A DNA stretch of 64,000 nt from the NCBI GenBank assembly GCA_024654445.1, contig JANLHP010000013.1, positions 26,528 to 90,527 on the forward strand, given 5' to 3'. This document shows, piece by piece, positions 2,995 through 63,156 of the stretch. The translations under genes and the position numbers were made by a program. The notes below the pieces were generated by a model that worked only from the letters and a program-made list of their open reading frames with translations, had not been told where the DNA came from and did not search any database. Each line of letters starts with the position of its first letter. Position 1 is the first letter of the stretch. The stretch is from Candidatus Curtissbacteria bacterium (GTDB lineage: Bacteria; Patescibacteriota; Microgenomatia; Curtissbacterales; GWA2-41-24).

Positions 2995-3058
2995 TAAAAA
3001 CAAGCTAAAGTTTTAGAATGAAGAGTCGATTCGATGGCAACTAGGTTGTCTGAGTTCC

Positions 3059-3137
3059 GTCATTGCGAGAAGCGGAGCGACGAAGCAATCTAATTAGAGT
3101 TTGAGATTGCCACGCTCATATATTCGCTCGCAATGAC
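3059..3137. repeat. structured palindromic intergenic element (copy R1): outer 11-bp inverted repeat GTCATTGCGAG/CTCGCAATGAC with a nested 7-bp inverted repeat GCAATCT/AGATTGC
   Basis: Perfect inverted repeats read directly from the sequence. Related copies at 50951-51097 (inside ychF), 39099-39167 and 12711-12896. Confidence 0.6.
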
Positions 3138-3178
3138 AAAGAATTATGCTTGAATTAGAGAGGATGTGCATTACTTGA

Positions 3179-10367: not shown

Positions 10368-10976
10368 ATGGAAAGTTCAGAAGCGGCTACTCAGCTGCTT
10401 AAAAACAAATATAATCTTCATAAAAGCCCAGAAGTAGATAACGCTGCGAAGCGTACAAAAGCACACACAGGCGAGAGAATTCCCCAAGACCCATTACTTC
10501 GTATTCAAAACTACTTGAATCGTTTTCACGAAATTACAGATCGACCTGACGCAGACGATCGTGAACACGGCATGGATGCTGCAAAAAGATTTCTTCACTC
10601 AAAGTATGTCATTAAACCAGATGAGGTCCCAGAAGGATATTTTGAAAACCAGCAACGCCAGGCACGCGAACTTGGACATGGGGATATTGAAATAACAGGT
10701 GACATGCGAACTCAATTAACAGATGTTCTTGTCGCAGATCAAAAATCAAGTCTTGATAAATGGGTTGATTATCTTTCCTCGCCGGACGCTCCCTACCCTG
10801 ATAGTTTAAAATATTTTACCCTCAGAAGCATTCTTACGATGGGTGATTACGATAAAGAAAGACACGCATTTACGCAAAGATCAAAAGGCACGGTTAAACC
10901 ATTTCCAGACCTCAACCGAGAGGCACTTGCCTACGGGTATAAGTGCCCTTTTTGCTTATTGACACGGCTTCTATAA
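10368..10976 (+). CDS. hypothetical protein
   Basis: 202-aa ORF. A TATAAT-like box lies just upstream. Confidence 0.5.
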   Translation: MESSEAATQLLKNKYNLHKSPEVDNAAKRTKAHTGERIPQDPLLRIQNYLNRFHEITDRPDADDREHGMDAAKRFLHSKYVIKPDEVPEGYFENQQRQARELGHGDIEITGDMRTQLTDVLVADQKSSLDKWVDYLSSPDAPYPDSLKYFTLRSILTMGDYDKERHAFTQRSKGTVKPFPDLNREALAYGYKCPFCLLTRLL

Positions 10977-12710: not shown

Positions 12711-12896
12711 CTTGTCATTCCAGCGAGAGCTGGAATCCACTTCGAGTAAGGGGGAATCAAAATATCAAGGTCTTCAGGTCGGCGAGTAATTCATTTATGG
12801 ATTCTGAATCTAGTTCAGAATGACGGAGGTCCCTCGAGGAAACCTCGGGTTCCTCTTAAAGTTCTAGTAGGGTGGAAAGGTCGAGGTGGCTCGACA
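12711..12896. repeat. cluster of hairpin-forming repeat modules sharing submotifs with the R1/R3 family
   Basis: Stems ATTCCAGC/GCTGGAAT, TTCTGAA/TTCAGAA, palindrome CCTCGAGG, GTCGAG/CTCGAC. Shared motifs CTTGTCATTC and CTTCGAG. Confidence 0.45.
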
Positions 12897-12897
12897 T

Positions 12898-13251
12898 TTA
12901 GAAAGGAAATCTTTTAGCAATTTTTGTTACGATTCCTTCTTTGTGCTGTTTGGAAATTTTTTTCTCCTTAACTTTGACGAGAAGTCTCTTCATTCGTTCA
13001 ACTGCTTTATCTATGGCTTTGTCCACCGAGTGTTCAACGTCTACAATCGAAAGATTTTTTCCTGGTATGTCTATTTCTATCTCACAATAGTAATCTTGTT
13101 CTTTGTCGCGATGAGATTTTTGTGATATCAAACGGACTTCAATTAGGTCTATTTTGGAGTGGAATTTAGCTAACTTTTTTACTTTTTCTTTTGCGTATTC
13201 TTCTACTTCTGGGAATTCTTTGAGGTGAATGCCGGAGACTATTATATTCAT
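12898..13251 (-). CDS. hpf: ribosome hibernation promoting factor (RaiA/HPF, S30AE family)
   Basis: Typical HPF sequence MNIIVSGIHLKEFPEVEEYAKEKVKKLAKF, 117 aa. Confidence 0.85.
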   Translation of the reverse strand: MNIIVSGIHLKEFPEVEEYAKEKVKKLAKFHSKIDLIEVRLISQKSHRDKEQDYYCEIEIDIPGKNLSIVDVEHSVDKAIDKAVERMKRLLVKVKEKKISKQHKEGIVTKIAKRFPF

Positions 13252-39049: not shown

Positions 39050-39098
39050 AGTAAAAGGGGATAGAGTTTAGGGTTAAGAATTGGATAGCGTTCAAGGT

Positions 39099-39167
39099 GA
39101 GATCCTTGTCATTCAGTGCCATGCGGTCCTCGTCCTTCGGACTGCGGACCTAAGGGGTCTCACTTGG
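39099..39167. repeat. structured repeat (copy R3): CAAGG-TGAGAT-CCTTG hairpin plus a GTCC-TTCG-GGAC (UUCG tetraloop) module
   Basis: Shares CAGTGCCATRCGGTCCTCGTCCYTCG with the ychF-internal copy. Contains the reverse complement of ATCTCACCTTG. Confidence 0.5.
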
Positions 39168-39174
39168 GCTTAAT

Positions 39175-44408: not shown

Positions 44409-45020
44409 TTAATTGCTGTAACTTTCGCAGGCGGCTTTTGCTTGTGGGTCTGTTATCTGAGCGCACATTGAGTTGGAAGTGCCGGGGCTTGCAGTAGCGG
44501 GGCTTTGAGTCTGCTCTTGAGTTTGTGTTAAGTCCATGAATTGTACGTCAGACGGTGGGGTGAACTTGGAATTGTCTGGCGACCAGGAAGAACATTTCAT
44601 ATCGACTTCTTTGTTTACATCGAAATCCTGGTTTTGATCTTGTGTCTGCTCAGTCGCCGCGCTGTTTTTAATTTTTACTCCTTGACCCATTACTGGTGTC
44701 CATGTATATGTGTACTCGCTGTCGTTGATCATAGAACTGTGCATCTCCGTTCCGTTCGGGTCTGTCATGGTAAAGTCGCCTCTTACTTTATTACCAGAAA
44801 CATAAATAGTACCTTCTGTTGACTGGCCGGGATATTTAACAGTGCAGGTTTGGTTTTTGCCAAAAAGTCCGGCTATTGTTCCTTTAACTTGTGTTTGGGC
44901 TTCAGGTGACCCGGGTGTAGTGGTTTCTGTCGATTTGCCTCTATTAAAAACAAATGCTCCGATTCCTATTACTGCAACAAGTGCTATTGCGCCGGCAGCA
45001 ATTTGAAGATTTCTTGACAT
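44409..45020 (-). CDS. membrane-anchored extracytoplasmic protein
   Basis: N-terminal TM. Thr/Gln-rich, with C-terminal Cys pairs. Confidence 0.5.
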   Translation of the reverse strand: MSRNLQIAAGAIALVAVIGIGAFVFNRGKSTETTTPGSPEAQTQVKGTIAGLFGKNQTCTVKYPGQSTEGTIYVSGNKVRGDFTMTDPNGTEMHSSMINDSEYTYTWTPVMGQGVKIKNSAATEQTQDQNQDFDVNKEVDMKCSSWSPDNSKFTPPSDVQFMDLTQTQEQTQSPATASPGTSNSMCAQITDPQAKAACESYSN

Positions 45021-45031
45021 TTCTTTTTGAG

Positions 45032-45060
45032 AGTATATTCCTCTGTGTTAATTTTGTCAA
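45032..45060 (-). promoter_or_regulatory. sigma70-like promoter for gene 44409-45020 (TTGACA-17 nt-TATACT)
   Basis: On the minus strand, TTGACA (45060-45055), a 17-nt spacer, then TATACT (45037-45032). The ATG at 45020 lies 11 nt downstream of the -10. Confidence 0.5.
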
Positions 45061-45175
45061 AATTTAAGGTATGACACCTCTTCGAGTCTGAGCTTGAAAG
45101 CTCATCCCTCAGAGTCGAATGACTTTCGATGACTCAAGGTTGCCACCTTAAATCACGAAGAATCTCACCTTGACT
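45053..45175. repeat. palindromic repeat element R4 (~87-bp imperfect palindrome bounded by TTTAAGGT/ACCTTAAA), followed by the ATCTCACCTTGAC motif
   Basis: Core 45064-45150 is the reverse complement of core 45830-45915. Flanks TTAATTTTGTCAARATTTAAGGT are in the same orientation at both loci. Confidence 0.65.
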
Positions 45176-45812
45176 TAACTTTTTTGACTTGCCAAATTAG
45201 TGCAGTGAGCGGAAGAGAGAGAAGAATTAATATCCATATCAAGTAGGAAAGGTCGATTCCGAAAGGCGCCCACTTTTGGATATCCAGGTTCTGCGCAATG
45301 TCGTAAACTCTCCACGGCGGTTTTTTTAGAACATGCATAAAGTACTCCCTTAATATCGAAGGTATTAAAAGGGCTACTATAATAATGAAGACACTTATTC
45401 TAGATGTAAAAAGTTTCTGCTTTTTGGTTAGGCGCACAAACAGCAGGTAAAAGATAAAAAAGTTTTCAAAAAAATTGGGAAAGAATATAAGCAAACTTCT
45501 ATTGCCAATTAGCGGAAACAGAATAGCTCCTGTAAGTCTGTACAAAAATGAAGATACAGCGATTTTTCTTGCTAATTGGTCCTTCCATGATAGGGAGGTG
45601 AATGCGGCAATGGCAAGATAATAAATATCGAAGATCTTGTCCCACAATTGGTATGCTTCACGCTCTCCGTTGTTTGCAAAAGGCAGGAAATTAAAATCAT
45701 AAACATCTATAAAGATAGATGCAAACAATCCAAAAAGCGGCCATTTTAAAATAGAGAATCCGGCTACGAGGCGAATAATAGAGAGAACGATATATGTTTC
45801 CAGAAGAGACAT
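45165..45812 (-). CDS. polytopic membrane protein bracketed by repeats R4 and R5
   Basis: 215 aa, about 6 TM segments. Its stop codon lies within the ATCTCACCTT motif. Confidence 0.55.
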   Translation of the reverse strand: MSLLETYIVLSIIRLVAGFSILKWPLFGLFASIFIDVYDFNFLPFANNGEREAYQLWDKIFDIYYLAIAAFTSLSWKDQLARKIAVSSFLYRLTGAILFPLIGNRSLLIFFPNFFENFFIFYLLFVRLTKKQKLFTSRISVFIIIVALLIPSILREYFMHVLKKPPWRVYDIAQNLDIQKWAPFGIDLSYLIWILILLSLPLTALIWQVKKVKSR

Positions 45813-45815
45813 TTT

Positions 45816-45965
45816 AATTTTGTCAAGATTTAAGGTGGCAACCTTGAGTCCTCGAAAGTCGTTCGACTCTGAGGGGTGAGCTTTTAAGCTCAGACTCGAA
45901 GAGGTGCCCTACCTTAAATCATAATGTTCAAGGATGAGACCTTAACAAGGATCTCACCTTAACTT
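45816..45965. repeat. palindromic repeat element R5 (core inverted relative to R4), plus a tandem duplication of the CAAGGATSWSACCTTAAC module
   Basis: See R4. 45925-45964 holds two tandem copies of about 18 bp ending in ATCTCACCTTAAC. Confidence 0.65.
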
Positions 45966-46529
45966 TAATTTAAGAATTTGTTTGAGTTGACCTTCAATTG
46001 CTGGATCGTTTATTGGCCCAAAACTAATTAAAGCGTTATCTCCGTTTCTGATTTCTCTTTGCAAAAAGTTATCTACTTTCTCTTCGTTAACGTAAAACTT
46101 GAGTGATTTTGTAGTAGATTCACAAAAATTTTGACCTGTGCCAGTTACTAAGCAGCCATAATCGACGTACATGGGTAGGGTTGCGAAGAACTCGCCCCAT
46201 GTAGTATTTGGCTTTTTAACCACGACGTGGTTGGGGTTTGATGCTTCTATGTAAACATCAGGAGAAACGTTGTGGTATTTTTTGGTTGTAAATTCTCTCT
46301 CTGTGCCTTCTGTAAAGATCAAAAACGACGCTTTTGTATCAGCATTGACCTGTGTAGTTGTAGGGGTCGGGCTTGATGTTGTGGTAAGCGGCAACTTTTT
46401 GTCGCAGGCGGAAAGCACAAAAGGGCTGATCAAAATCAATGCTAATACTCTAAAGCTGTACACGTATTCAGAATAACATTTCCTGTTTGATTTGTGGTGA
46501 ACGCAGCGGTTTGTATATAATCTGCACAC
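45954..46529 (-). CDS. putative lipoprotein (true start probably GTG near 46463)
   Basis: Lipobox FVLSAC after a hydrophobic stretch. The ORF-track start at 46529 abuts the divergent SPFH start, leaving no promoter space. Confidence 0.5.
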   Translation of the reverse strand: MCRLYTNRCVHHKSNRKCYSEYVYSFRVLALILISPFVLSACDKKLPLTTTSSPTPTTTQVNADTKASFLIFTEGTEREFTTKKYHNVSPDVYIEASNPNHVVVKKPNTTWGEFFATLPMYVDYGCLVTGTGQNFCESTTKSLKFYVNEEKVDNFLQREIRNGDNALISFGPINDPAIEGQLKQILKLKLR

Positions 46530-50287: not shown

Positions 50288-51496
50288 ATGAACCTATCTG
50301 TCGGTATTGTTGGACTACCCAACGTGGGGAAAAGCACGCTTTTTAATGCGCTTTTAAAGAAGCAGGTGGCTGACGCGCAGAATTATCCGTTTACGACGAT
50401 TGAACCAAACGTCGGCGTTGTTGAAGTTCCAGACCCACGTCTTTTCAAACTTGCAGACGTGGTAAAGAGCAGTGAGGGTTTAGCTCCGAATTTTAAGATA
50501 ATTCCAGCGGTTGTTAAGTTTGTAGATATTGCTGGTCTTGTTAAAGGTGCAGCAAGCGGCGAAGGATTAGGGAATCAATTTTTGTCGCATATTCGTGAGG
50601 TTGACGCGATTGTTTTTGTGTTGAGGGATTTTAGTGGAGAAGTTATTCGGGTGGGAAGTGAGAATCCCCAGGAAGATCTTGAGGTTCTAAAAACTGAACT
50701 TTTGATTAAGGATCTTGAGACTATTGATAAGCGAATTGATAGTTTAGGTAGGGAGTTGAAACCTCTTGGGCACCAAGATCCTAAGCATCAAGTTTTGGTG
50801 ACGATGCAAAAAGCGAAACAACTTGCTGAAGAGGGGAAGTGGCTGGGAGAAAATATGGACGAGGAAGAACTGGCGAAAATCCGTGAATTGCAGCTGCTTT
50901 CGACGAAGAAAACAATTGTTGTATTAAACACAGATGAGGGTAATCTCTCTGTTATTGCGAGTGAATCGAAGCAATCTCCAGATTCTGGATATACAGTGCC
51001 ATACGGTCCTCGTCCCTCGAGGACTCAGGACTCCGGGCCTAAAAGCCAGGATGACAAAAAAGAGATTGCCGCGGGCTCTTCGAGCCCTCGCAATGACAAT
51101 TATGTAAGGATAAGCGCGAAACTAGAACAGGAACTTTCGGACCTTGATGAGGAAGAGCAGGGAGAATACCTAAAAGAGCTTGGGATTGGCGAACCCGGAT
51201 TAAATCGTTTAATTAAAAATGCGTATGAAACTTTGGGGCTTATTACTTTTTTTACTGCCGGGCCAAAAGAAGTGCATGCGTGGACGACAAATAAAGGCGT
51301 ACTTGCACCGCAAGCTGCAGGAGTAATTCATACGGATTTTGAAAAAGGATTTATTGCTGCAGAAGTTATAGATTGGGAAACTTTAGTTGATGTGGGTGGA
51401 TGGCAGGCGGCAAAAGGGAAGGGACAAGTTAAGACTATCGGAAAGACAGAAGAAGTAAAGGATGGAATGGTTGTGGAGTTCAGGTTCAGTAACTAA
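50288..51496 (+). CDS. ychF: ribosome-binding ATPase YchF (Obg-family GTPase) carrying a 49-aa internal insertion
   Basis: G1 [17 protein letters not shown] domain at the C-terminus. 402 aa, versus about 363 for canonical YchF. Confidence 0.9.
50951..51097. repeat. composite structured repeat inserted in frame (147 bp) within ychF: R1-type outer/inner inverted repeats enclosing an R3-type module
   Basis: GTTATTGCGAG...GCAATCT...[CAGTGCCATACGGTCCTCGTCCCTCGAGGAC...]...AGATTGC...CTCGCAATGAC. Compare copy R1 at 3059-3137 and copy R3 at 39099-39167. Confidence 0.6.
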
Positions 51497-63072: not shown

Positions 63073-63156
63073 TGCCGAGAGAGGGGGTCGAACCCTCACG
63101 ATCTTGCGATCATAGGTTTTTGAGACCTACGCGTCTGCCGGTTCCGCCATCTCGGC
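63073..63156 (-). tRNA. tRNA-Leu (anticodon CAA), long variable arm
   Basis: Reverse complement reads GCCGAGA-TG-GCGGAACCGGCAGACGC-GTAGGT-CTCAAAA-ACCTAT-(variable arm GATCGCAAGATCGTGA)-GGGTTCGACCCCC-TCTCGGC-A. 7-bp acceptor stem, anticodon-loop positions 34-36 = CAA. A hairpin terminator lies downstream at 63027-63048. Confidence 0.8.

Follow-up and report, generated by a model that had tools for sequence, protein, structure and literature searches.

GTC-tagged hairpin repeats in a Candidatus Curtissbacteria contig, including an in-frame composite copy in the ychF gene

Repeat elements in the window

The window, by which we mean the whole 64,000-nucleotide stretch of DNA that was analysed, has a G+C content of approximately 41% and a GC skew that is positive throughout. 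It carries repeats at six places (Table 1). R1 starts 65 nt downstream of a gene and is followed by the gene with locus tag NUV69_01200, R2 and R3 lie between convergent genes, R4 and R5 occur close to each other, and a composite copy is embedded within the reading frame of ychF.

The first-pass annotation had described these nested-hairpin repeats as one family built from reusable modules. The repeats are real where it placed them and exceed chance expectation, but they are not a single family. Judged from their sequences, they form three groups. The GTC-tagged units of R1, R2a and ychF make up the first, the core of R3 the second and the palindrome present as R4 and R5 the third. This palindrome is a separate element of a different family from the GTC-tagged units, and its link with R3 is a flanking motif of 10–16 nt only. 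The idea of modules holds in so far as some elements lie within others, but R4/R5 does not belong among them. Most of the submotifs quoted as common to the loci were enriched: GTCATTSCGAG (up to one mismatch) occurs 6 times in the window against 1.35 expected, CGGTCCTCGTCC twice against 0.11 and ATCTCACCTT three times against 0.12. CTTCGAG (15 against 8.3 expected) and CCTCGAGG (3 against 0.41) were borderline. Altogether the 64 kb contain three dimers and one nested unit of the GTC-tagged class.

Table 1. Positions of the repeat elements and their parts in the window.
Feature	Position	Strand	Description
R1 dimer	3058-3138		81 nt, tags outward; intergenic, downstream of ORF 2329-2994
R1 left unit (type A)	3058..3092	+	CGTC tag, ATTGC/GCAAT, internal loop, apex GAGAAGCGGAGCGACGAA, tail CTA
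R1 left basal stem	3062-3066 / 3085-3089		ATTGC/GCAAT
R1 right unit (type A)	3102..3138	-	TGTC tag, ATTGC...GCAAT, tail CTC
R2a left unit, canonical	12713..12739	+	TGTC-ATTCCAGC-GAGA-GCTGGAAT-CCA
R2a right unit, canonical	12798..12825	-	CGTC-ATTCTGAA-CTAGA-TTCAGAAT-CCA
R2b, two more hairpins	12826..12900	.	between convergent coaD-like and hpf genes; without GTC-tagged stem
R3	39093..39168	+	decayed copy of inner ychF element (~58-nt common core), between convergent genes; weak hairpin potential
R4	45062..45154	.	~95-nt self-palindromic element, ends ATTTAAGGT..ACCTTAAAT
R5	45827..45919	.	second copy, 94% identical to reverse complement of R4
ychF gene	50288-51496		essential GTPase
Composite ychF insert	50951..51097	+	147 nt = 49 in-frame codons, no stop; residues 222-270, ends ...SSSPRND
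ychF left type A unit	50950..50978	+	TGTT-ATTGC-GAGTGAATCGAA-GCAAT-CTC; tag decayed
ychF inner nested unit	50980..51056	-	TGTC-ATCCTGG-[57-nt loop]-CCAGAAT-CT
ychF inner-unit loop	~50989-51046		copy of R3 core
ychF right type A unit	51060..51098	-	TGTC-ATTGC-GAG-GGCTC-GAA-GAGCC-CGCG-GCAAT-CTC

Structure of the GTC-tagged units

R1 is composed of two units in opposite orientation. The perfect 11-bp outer inverted repeat previously recorded here, GTCATTGCGAG (3059–3069) and CTCGCAATGAC (3127–3137), is present, as is the nested repeat GCAATCT/AGATTGC. When folded as single-stranded DNA the element reached −20.2 kcal/mol (z = −4.8), and 0 of 200 shuffled sequences folded as well. A search of full-text literature for GTCATTGCGAG returned primers only.

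Both units of R1 belong to a type that we designated type A, with the consensus [C/T]GTC-ATTGC-GA-G[variable apex]C-GAA/GYG-GCAAT-C. The internal loop has GA on one side and GAA or GYG on the other, and the apex is closed by a G-C pair and varies in both length and sequence. A census of 2.5 Mb of loci recovered 275 type A units, among whose centres 178 were distinct. The base preceding GTC was T in 160 and C in 105 of them, and the most frequent tails were CTC (119), CCA (69) and CCC (41). Because the available units had been chosen for perfect stems, a count of covarying pairs would have been circular and was replaced by a fold test on the apex. In this test units were picked by their conserved flanks alone, the apex playing no part in selection, and the apices folded better than their shuffles (Wilcoxon p = 3e-20). 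GCGAAGC, the most frequent apex, was reported by Hirao and co-workers to form an unusually stable DNA mini-hairpin. The basal stem also occurs in variants that preserve pairing, namely ATCGC/GCGAT (L126; L numbers denote loci collected from other sequences), ATGAC/GTCAT (L213–L222), ATTCT/AGAAT and ATGCC/GGCAT.

The four hairpins attributed to R2 were all recovered, and two of them have perfect 8-bp stems. These two constitute R2a (12713–12825), a tags-outward dimer whose stems differ in sequence while both pair perfectly, and they are the only perfect 8-bp hairpins in the window that start with AT and have a loop of 4–5 nt; each is preceded by a GTC tag and followed by a CCA tail. The remaining two hairpins, R2b, lack a GTC-tagged stem; they are probably terminator-like and have candidate status only. 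Across the three dimers, the tags are CGTC and TGTC in R1, TGTC and CGTC in R2a, and TGTT, a decayed form, and TGTC in ychF.

The ychF insert and in-frame copies in other genes

The composite copy reported inside ychF was confirmed. Three collinear blocks of the insert are common to R1, and its interior resembles R3 (83% identity over 40 nt, with a common core of approximately 58 nt). R3 is a decayed copy of the expanded loop of the unit nested in the ychF insert. As a structured element in its own right R3 was not supported, since as a whole it folds no better than shuffles (z = −1.1). Its hairpin does have the GTCC/GGAC stem, but the loop, described earlier as a UUCG tetraloop, actually reads GTCC-TTC-GGAC.

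Most Curtissbacteria YchF orthologues are 359–360 residues long and have no insert, and the site is empty in L004. In the AlphaFold2 model of the window YchF, residues 224–270 have pLDDT below 50 and are located between confidently predicted strands (208–215 and 273–275), which makes a disordered loop following the G4 strand the most likely state of the insert. Other ychF genes carry different occupants, including a solo type A arm (..EEIASSQAPRND..) in L001 and a dimer with CTGG stems in L002, which encodes VILGS...FWTSQND and has a further insert in one hairpin. The Daviesbacteria gene of L126, which came from a sample of distant YchF loci obtained by a scan on a universally conserved peptide, has a type A dimer in the same loop, four codons away. 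Its right arm differs from that of the window at 2 of 34 nt, whereas identity between the two proteins is only 50%. Within Curtissbacteria ychF, three different elements share the right junction AATGAC|AAY, two codons before VRI, and the native ..PPIAGG.. residues are lost in all three alleles. Such a pattern suggests that an occupied site was refilled or that the target is a preferred one, and speaks against random insertion.

In-frame copies were also identified in other genes. The right-arm variant of the window ychF is in frame in leuS (L207) and at the trpC/trpF junction (L206), both found by a metagenome scan with a 34-nt pattern containing two free (N) positions; the same variant is present in three or four different genes. 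In addition, L001 has a dimer within a release-factor gene (prfA/B) and L126 a dimer in a prmC-like gene, where it encodes ..DSRFRGND. The lengths of tags-outward dimers are distributed uniformly modulo 3 (12:15:17), which indicates that the in-frame copies are a selected subset.

Rickettsia palindromic elements (RPE), said to have been reported by Ogata et al. in 2000, offer a close parallel. In both cases palindromic repeats have entered housekeeping genes without breaking the reading frame and are translated into additional loops of 30–50 residues, in a reduced genome of a host-dependent bacterium. The 49 extra codons of ychF, absent from orthologues, and the copies in release-factor, prmC, leuS and trpC/F genes show that the ychF insertion behaves like an RPE, on the basis of in-frame insertion and not of sequence-family identity. 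The differences are the host phylum, the sequence subfamilies and the composite nesting, in which a type A dimer holds a solo unit with an expanded loop.

Several further observations concern these genes. In the L002 ychF dimer (10730–10831) the left hairpin contains a 33-nt extra piece flanked by an 8-nt direct repeat, GGAGCGAC, and is possibly a nested insertion with target duplication. The alignment of Curtissbacteria YchF proteins revealed other inserts at other loops, such as SASAKASAGQAG after the P-loop helix, SLRSSSFDKLRTAG, PSTSLRTSRP and stretches containing GWxxGxPP, all of which look like translated GC-rich repeats of other families. A 370-residue ORF at 985–2097 of the window shares 34 nt at 79% identity with ychF (1636–1669 against 50696–50729) and may encode a second Obg/YchF-type GTPase. 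In L206 another repeat end, ...CGCTCAGGATGAC, is located at approximately 2250–2350 in a trpF-like reading frame, downstream of a type A dimer.

Distribution and polymorphism

Units of this class were found in other Microgenomates, including L001 and L208 (both Curtissbacteria), L126 (Daviesbacteria) and L223 (Levyibacteriota). The type A left-arm pattern matched at least 120 IMG/VR contigs, and units of at least 89% identity are present on plasmids of Methylosinus, Methylocystis, Novosphingobium, Legionella, Halomonas, Calothrix and Aulosira, whereas in GenBank phages such units are rare. Among 261 units in viral contigs selected by the pattern, 138 were solo, with no partner within 200 nt, and 44 tags-outward dimers were found, with a median length of 83.5 nt and spacers of 8–58 nt.

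Sites differ in occupancy between relatives. The coaD-like and hpf genes on either side of R2 overlap by 4 nt in five syntenic relatives (read from DNA in L208 and from gene coordinates in the other four) compared with 245 nt between their stop codons in the window. The spacer upstream of the gene beside R1 measures 184 nt in the window and 115 nt in the only relative that shares this neighbour, as judged by gene coordinates. Near-identical contigs also differ by the presence or absence of a solo unit of 62–63 nt, the flanks of which, AAAAGAGAAAAT and AAAAAGAGAGAAAAT, form an imperfect direct repeat of 12–15 nt. Dimers showed no regular target-site duplication, and no parent insertion sequence with the same ends was found. 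As a separate observation, L035 (5705–5800 and 5960–6000) combines GTC-tagged and GTAG-tagged repeats nested within one locus: a GTCATTCTGAG...CAGAATGAC dimer encloses hairpins with a GTAG tag (GTAGTGCGAGGC...).

Association with genes for single-domain GIY-YIG proteins

Outside the window, arms of this class directly accompany genes for single-domain GIY-YIG proteins of approximately 95 residues (L223, L224, L227, L231, L234, L238, L213–L222, L265 and, as a pseudogene, L208). In L223 the order is an arm, 17 nt, a 96-residue GIY-YIG ORF, 2 nt and an inverted arm, while in L224, also from Patescibacteria, a dimer ends 16 nt upstream of the gene. The GIY-YIG gene of L227 has type A arms on both sides. 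Two related Patescibacteria, including a MAG from the Microgenomates, have type A arms directly next to their Ssn-like genes, and this arm-ssn-arm order is reminiscent of an insertion sequence. In L208 a type A dimer surrounds approximately 200 nt with a frameshifted GIY-YIG remnant (hmmsearch E = 4e-21), and L213–L222 have arms after the stop codon of the GIY-YIG gene and a polymorphic unit before its start.

Forty viral-contig loci and L227 make up 41 further Ssn-like loci, 39 of which have GTC-tagged hairpins in their flanks, as found by a permissive detection for which approximately 0.16 chance matches are expected per flank with 5-bp stems. The type of unit varies between Ssn-like loci and includes CGTC-1, CGTC-3, type A and others. 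The flank of the Ssn-like gene of L265, an unclassified viral contig, features the stem of the left R2a unit, ATTCCAGC/GCTGGAAT. Intact Ssn-like proteins are 96–97 residues long with Y-11-Y-47-E spacing, as in SsnA (Y6, Y17 and E64). In databases these proteins match Pfam PF01541 only, with nothing specific in NCBIfam. We arrived at the GIY-YIG association independently, through L208, but it is not new, having been published in 2025 (PMC11893778).

Comparison with characterised repeat systems

CGTC-tagged REPs are defined by a CGTC or TGTC tag (CCTC allowed), stems of 8–9 bp starting with AT, loops of 4–5 nt and CCA tails, and are mostly arranged as dimers (PMC3733652). Families CGTC-1 to CGTC-4 include dRS3 of Neisseria and RPE-4 and RPE-6 of R. 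conorii, which Di Nocera, De Gregorio and Rocco (2013) assigned to CGTC-4 and CGTC-1, respectively (PMC3733652). As published, these repeats occur in five phyla, mostly in Alphaproteobacteria, with no associated enzyme, and their in-frame copies encode VIPAKAGI, SFPRKRES and DSRFCRND (PMC3733652). R2a corresponds to this description in its tag, its continuous 8-bp stems starting with AT, its loops (GAGA and CTAGA), the CCA tail on both units and the opposite orientation of the units. Intragenic in-frame copies are another common feature, and DSRFRGND in the prmC-like gene of L126 resembles DSRFCRND and HSRFRGND of R. conorii. The type A units of R1 and ychF agree with it in their tag and in having a short unpaired tail (in type A generally CTC, CCA or CCC) but depart from it in their stem: the basal stem is 5 bp long and followed by an internal loop, and the type A apex measures 9–45 nt. 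Although the basal stem starts with AT, type A is outside the stem and loop sizes of all four families, and its peptides (VIAS.. and ..PRND) are missing from the published list of intragenic copies. The type of R1 is a bipartite-stem form of the GTC-tagged hairpin repeat class.

The second relevant system is that of the NTS repeat, CGTCATTCCCGCGMAVGCGGGAATCYRG, and the Ssn-related motifs (SRM), which flank genes for the 94-residue single-domain GIY-YIG protein SsnA (Chenal et al. 2025, Nat Commun, PMC11893778). SsnA binds the hairpin in single-stranded DNA only and cuts a few nucleotides upstream; cleavage is governed by the three nucleotides before the palindrome and binding by the C after it (PMC11893778). 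Homologues from Neisseria and Wolbachia bind single-stranded hairpins sequence-specifically and nick 5′ of the tag, leaving double-stranded DNA and RNA untouched, and SRMs flank 71% of the homologues of ssnA (PMC11893778). The NTS-ssnA-NTS layout is IS-like, its mobility being hypothesised only (PMC11893778). The units described here have the same (C/T)GTC 5′ tag, a hairpin starting with AT, C immediately after the palindrome, tags-outward placement on both sides of a GIY-YIG gene of approximately 95 codons and many dispersed copies. Based on its tag, stem, loop and tail, R2a matches both the definition of Di Nocera and colleagues and NTS, from which it departs in stem letters only.

In contrast, the published degenerate SRM sequence, HGTCWYN(0-2)YYVSBRHN(0-5)WNVSBRGN(0-2)RNCYNB, matched none of the window units (0 matches in the window, 0.17 in shuffles), and in L126 it matched only the canonical unit. 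In type A, one continuous stem is replaced by a basal stem of 5 bp that leads through an internal loop to an apical hairpin of variable sequence and length. Many copies here are intragenic, as opposed to 2% in N. meningitidis, and the host belongs to a Patescibacteria lineage that is unmentioned in PMC11893778. Our literature search on palindromic, REP and RPE elements in the Candidate Phyla Radiation (CPR) found nothing relevant.

REPIN-RAYT systems likewise have inverted doublets of tagged hairpins as their replicating unit, with long persistence and vertical inheritance (PMC3116915; 10.1101/2021.07.10.451892). The units described here carry GTC in place of a GTAG tag, searches of the window and of the Patescibacteria loci turned up no RAYT, and what the arms bracket is a GIY-YIG nuclease gene.

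Origin and spread of the repeats

Based on these comparisons, we consider it likely that R1, R2a and the outer part of the ychF insert belong to the GTC-tagged hairpin repeats of the kind known as CGTC-tagged REPs or NTS/SRM, the class recognised by Ssn nucleases, and that they are non-autonomous derivatives of an arm-ssn-arm arrangement spread via a cognate Ssn-like nuclease. They represent a known class of element in a new host lineage and not a new kind of element. In the mechanism that we propose, each unit of a dimer would fold into a hairpin when the DNA is single-stranded, and an Ssn protein of approximately 95 residues with a GIY-YIG domain would bind this hairpin and nick its strand on the 5′ side of the tag, at a distance of a few nucleotides. 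The dimers of the window, which contain no ORF, may descend from the arm-ssn-arm layout and would have spread by or with the cognate nuclease together with host replication and repair. They would have survived where harm is small, either just downstream of genes (R1 and R2) or translated within a disordered surface loop of YchF. Candidate roles in the cell are control of incoming or replicating single-stranded DNA, recombination hot spots or nothing at all. We infer that a cognate nuclease is present in this genome, cuts these units and causes their spread. Several points stand against this explanation: there is no ssn-like gene in the 64-kb window, the published degenerate SRM sequence matches none of the window units, the same repeat class has also been tied to a Group 2 RAYT in Neisseria, the detection of flanking hairpins was permissive, and the shared right junction in ychF is unexplained by random insertion. 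Since DNA hydrolysis by GIY-YIG nucleases is not known to be coupled to strand transfer, transposition by Ssn is a hypothesis only, as it also is in PMC11893778.

Three other mechanisms, and chance, were weighed against this explanation. The first-pass annotation had suggested REP/BIME- or MITE-like elements, and the former comparison was correct for R1, R2a and the ychF copy, which have the anatomy of CGTC-tagged REPs or Ssn-related motifs and form inverted dimers. Inverted dimers of 5′-tagged hairpins are also the architecture of REPINs, and Bertels and Rainey tied the Neisseria repeat ATTCCCGCGCAGGCGGGAATC, of the same class, to a Group 2 RAYT, with decay of the repeat where the RAYT is frameshifted. 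The repeats could accordingly be REPINs mobilised by a RAYT, an HUH tyrosine transposase acting on single-stranded hairpins, with the GIY-YIG gene as a frequent neighbour only. We regard this as unlikely. The annotation had seen no transposase in the window, and our search for RAYT and IS200 ORFs agreed; no Ssn-like ORF was found in the window either. With approximate RayT and IS608 TnpA queries, phmmer gave no match in the window or in approximately 240 kb of Patescibacteria loci, and the one RAYT that was found (L200, Bradyrhizobium) is flanked by GTAG repeats and not by GTC-tagged ones. In addition, the study of CGTC-tagged REPs by Di Nocera et al. did not reveal a dedicated transposase (PMC3733652), and the arms directly bracket a GIY-YIG gene in many independent loci. 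Classical MITEs, that is, deletion derivatives of insertion sequences moved in trans by a DDE transposase acting on terminal inverted repeats, would share the inverted terminal arms, the small size (the 83.5-nt median) and the presence/absence polymorphism, and one polymorphic solo unit does have an imperfect direct repeat around it. The MITE comparison was apt in a loose sense only, in that the dimers are non-autonomous and their arms elsewhere flank a small nuclease gene. Single units are nevertheless the commonest form, dimers have no regular target-site duplication, and neither the window nor the surroundings of arms yielded a transposase. Each arm folds internally into a hairpin and has a conserved tag that stays unpaired, a signature of recognition in single-stranded DNA. 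A MITE origin is consequently very improbable.

The repeats might alternatively be immobile regulatory structures of the host in RNA or DNA (terminators, mRNA stabilisers or a small-RNA family) under site-wise selection. The positions of R1, R2 and R3 after or between genes are consistent with such a function, and REPs in general are often transcribed and able to stabilise mRNA. However, the ychF copy is in frame in a coding sequence, five other genes of relatives also contain copies that keep the frame, relatives have empty sites and units are the same across phyla. By eye, we saw no T-tract after R1 or R2a. The structured small-RNA family proposed earlier gained no support either: no Rfam match overlapped R1, R2a, R3–R5 or the ychF insert, the dimers are strand-symmetric, one copy is translated in frame, the commonest apex is a DNA mini-hairpin, and the cognate protein family acts on single-stranded DNA and not on RNA. 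We therefore judge a regulatory origin improbable, while secondary regulatory use of the repeats at some sites is possible. Chance or composition would fit the marginal enrichment of CTTCGAG and CCTCGAGG and the fold of R3, which is like that of shuffles. Against it, motif counts exceeded all or nearly all shuffles, R1 has z = −4.8 and the same units recur in hundreds of unrelated contigs. As a general explanation of the similarities, chance has a negligible probability, and it was ruled out for R1, R2a and the ychF copy by enrichment, the R1 fold and recurrence elsewhere.

The reading that the window dimers derive from arm-ssn-arm elements and spread via an Ssn-like nuclease can be taken further, but only tentatively. 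The arm-ssn-arm arrangement might be a mobile element in its own right, truly autonomous and relying on a GIY-YIG single-strand nuclease, with R1-like type A dimers as its miniature derivatives; these would colonise housekeeping genes of Patescibacteria (Microgenomates) in frame and belong to a pan-bacterial SRM subclass missed by the published pattern. We hold this extended proposal to be doubtful; if true, it would mean a class of autonomous element not yet demonstrated, and a steady supply of new protein loops.

The present results extend the Ssn/SRM system, CGTC-tagged REPs and the RPE phenomenon to the CPR, and a very widespread variant with a bipartite stem escapes the published search motif. 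Cases of arm-gene-arm order, of a pseudogene within a dimer and of empty sites bear on whether these repeats are moved and by what. For annotation, the repeats explain odd insertions of 30–50 residues in CPR proteins with peptides such as VIASE..KQS or ..PRND. For biotechnology, each new pair of hairpin and nuclease is a candidate restriction tool specific for single-stranded DNA.

Other repeats and structures in the window

The R3-core and R4/R5 patterns gave no matches in viral contigs, so these groups remain two-copy families. R4 and R5 (region 45040–45975) flank a hypothetical membrane-like ORF of 215 residues (45165–45812, − strand) with no Pfam match. Their interiors are inverted with respect to each other, whereas the two outer flanks have the same orientation. 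On the − strand the left flank, TTAATTTTGTCAAR, reads TTGACA, 17 nt from the TATACT of the gene at 44409–45020. A module of terminator plus promoter, or a flip-flop palindrome, could account for this layout.

Over the whole window, Rfam at gathering and E-value thresholds returned a tRNA and weak sub-threshold matches only. The match nearest to the repeats was RAGATH-32 (12886–12929, E = 0.62), which is weak, below threshold and at the edge of R2b, and the tRNA gene at 63073–63156 (− strand) was the sole match above the gathering threshold. The motif ATCTCACCTT is located at 39094–39103, 45162–45171 and 45951–45960. On the − strand it provides the TGA stop codon of the ORFs at 45165–45812 and 45954–46529, and two units of it form a 46-nt hairpin at 45926–45963.
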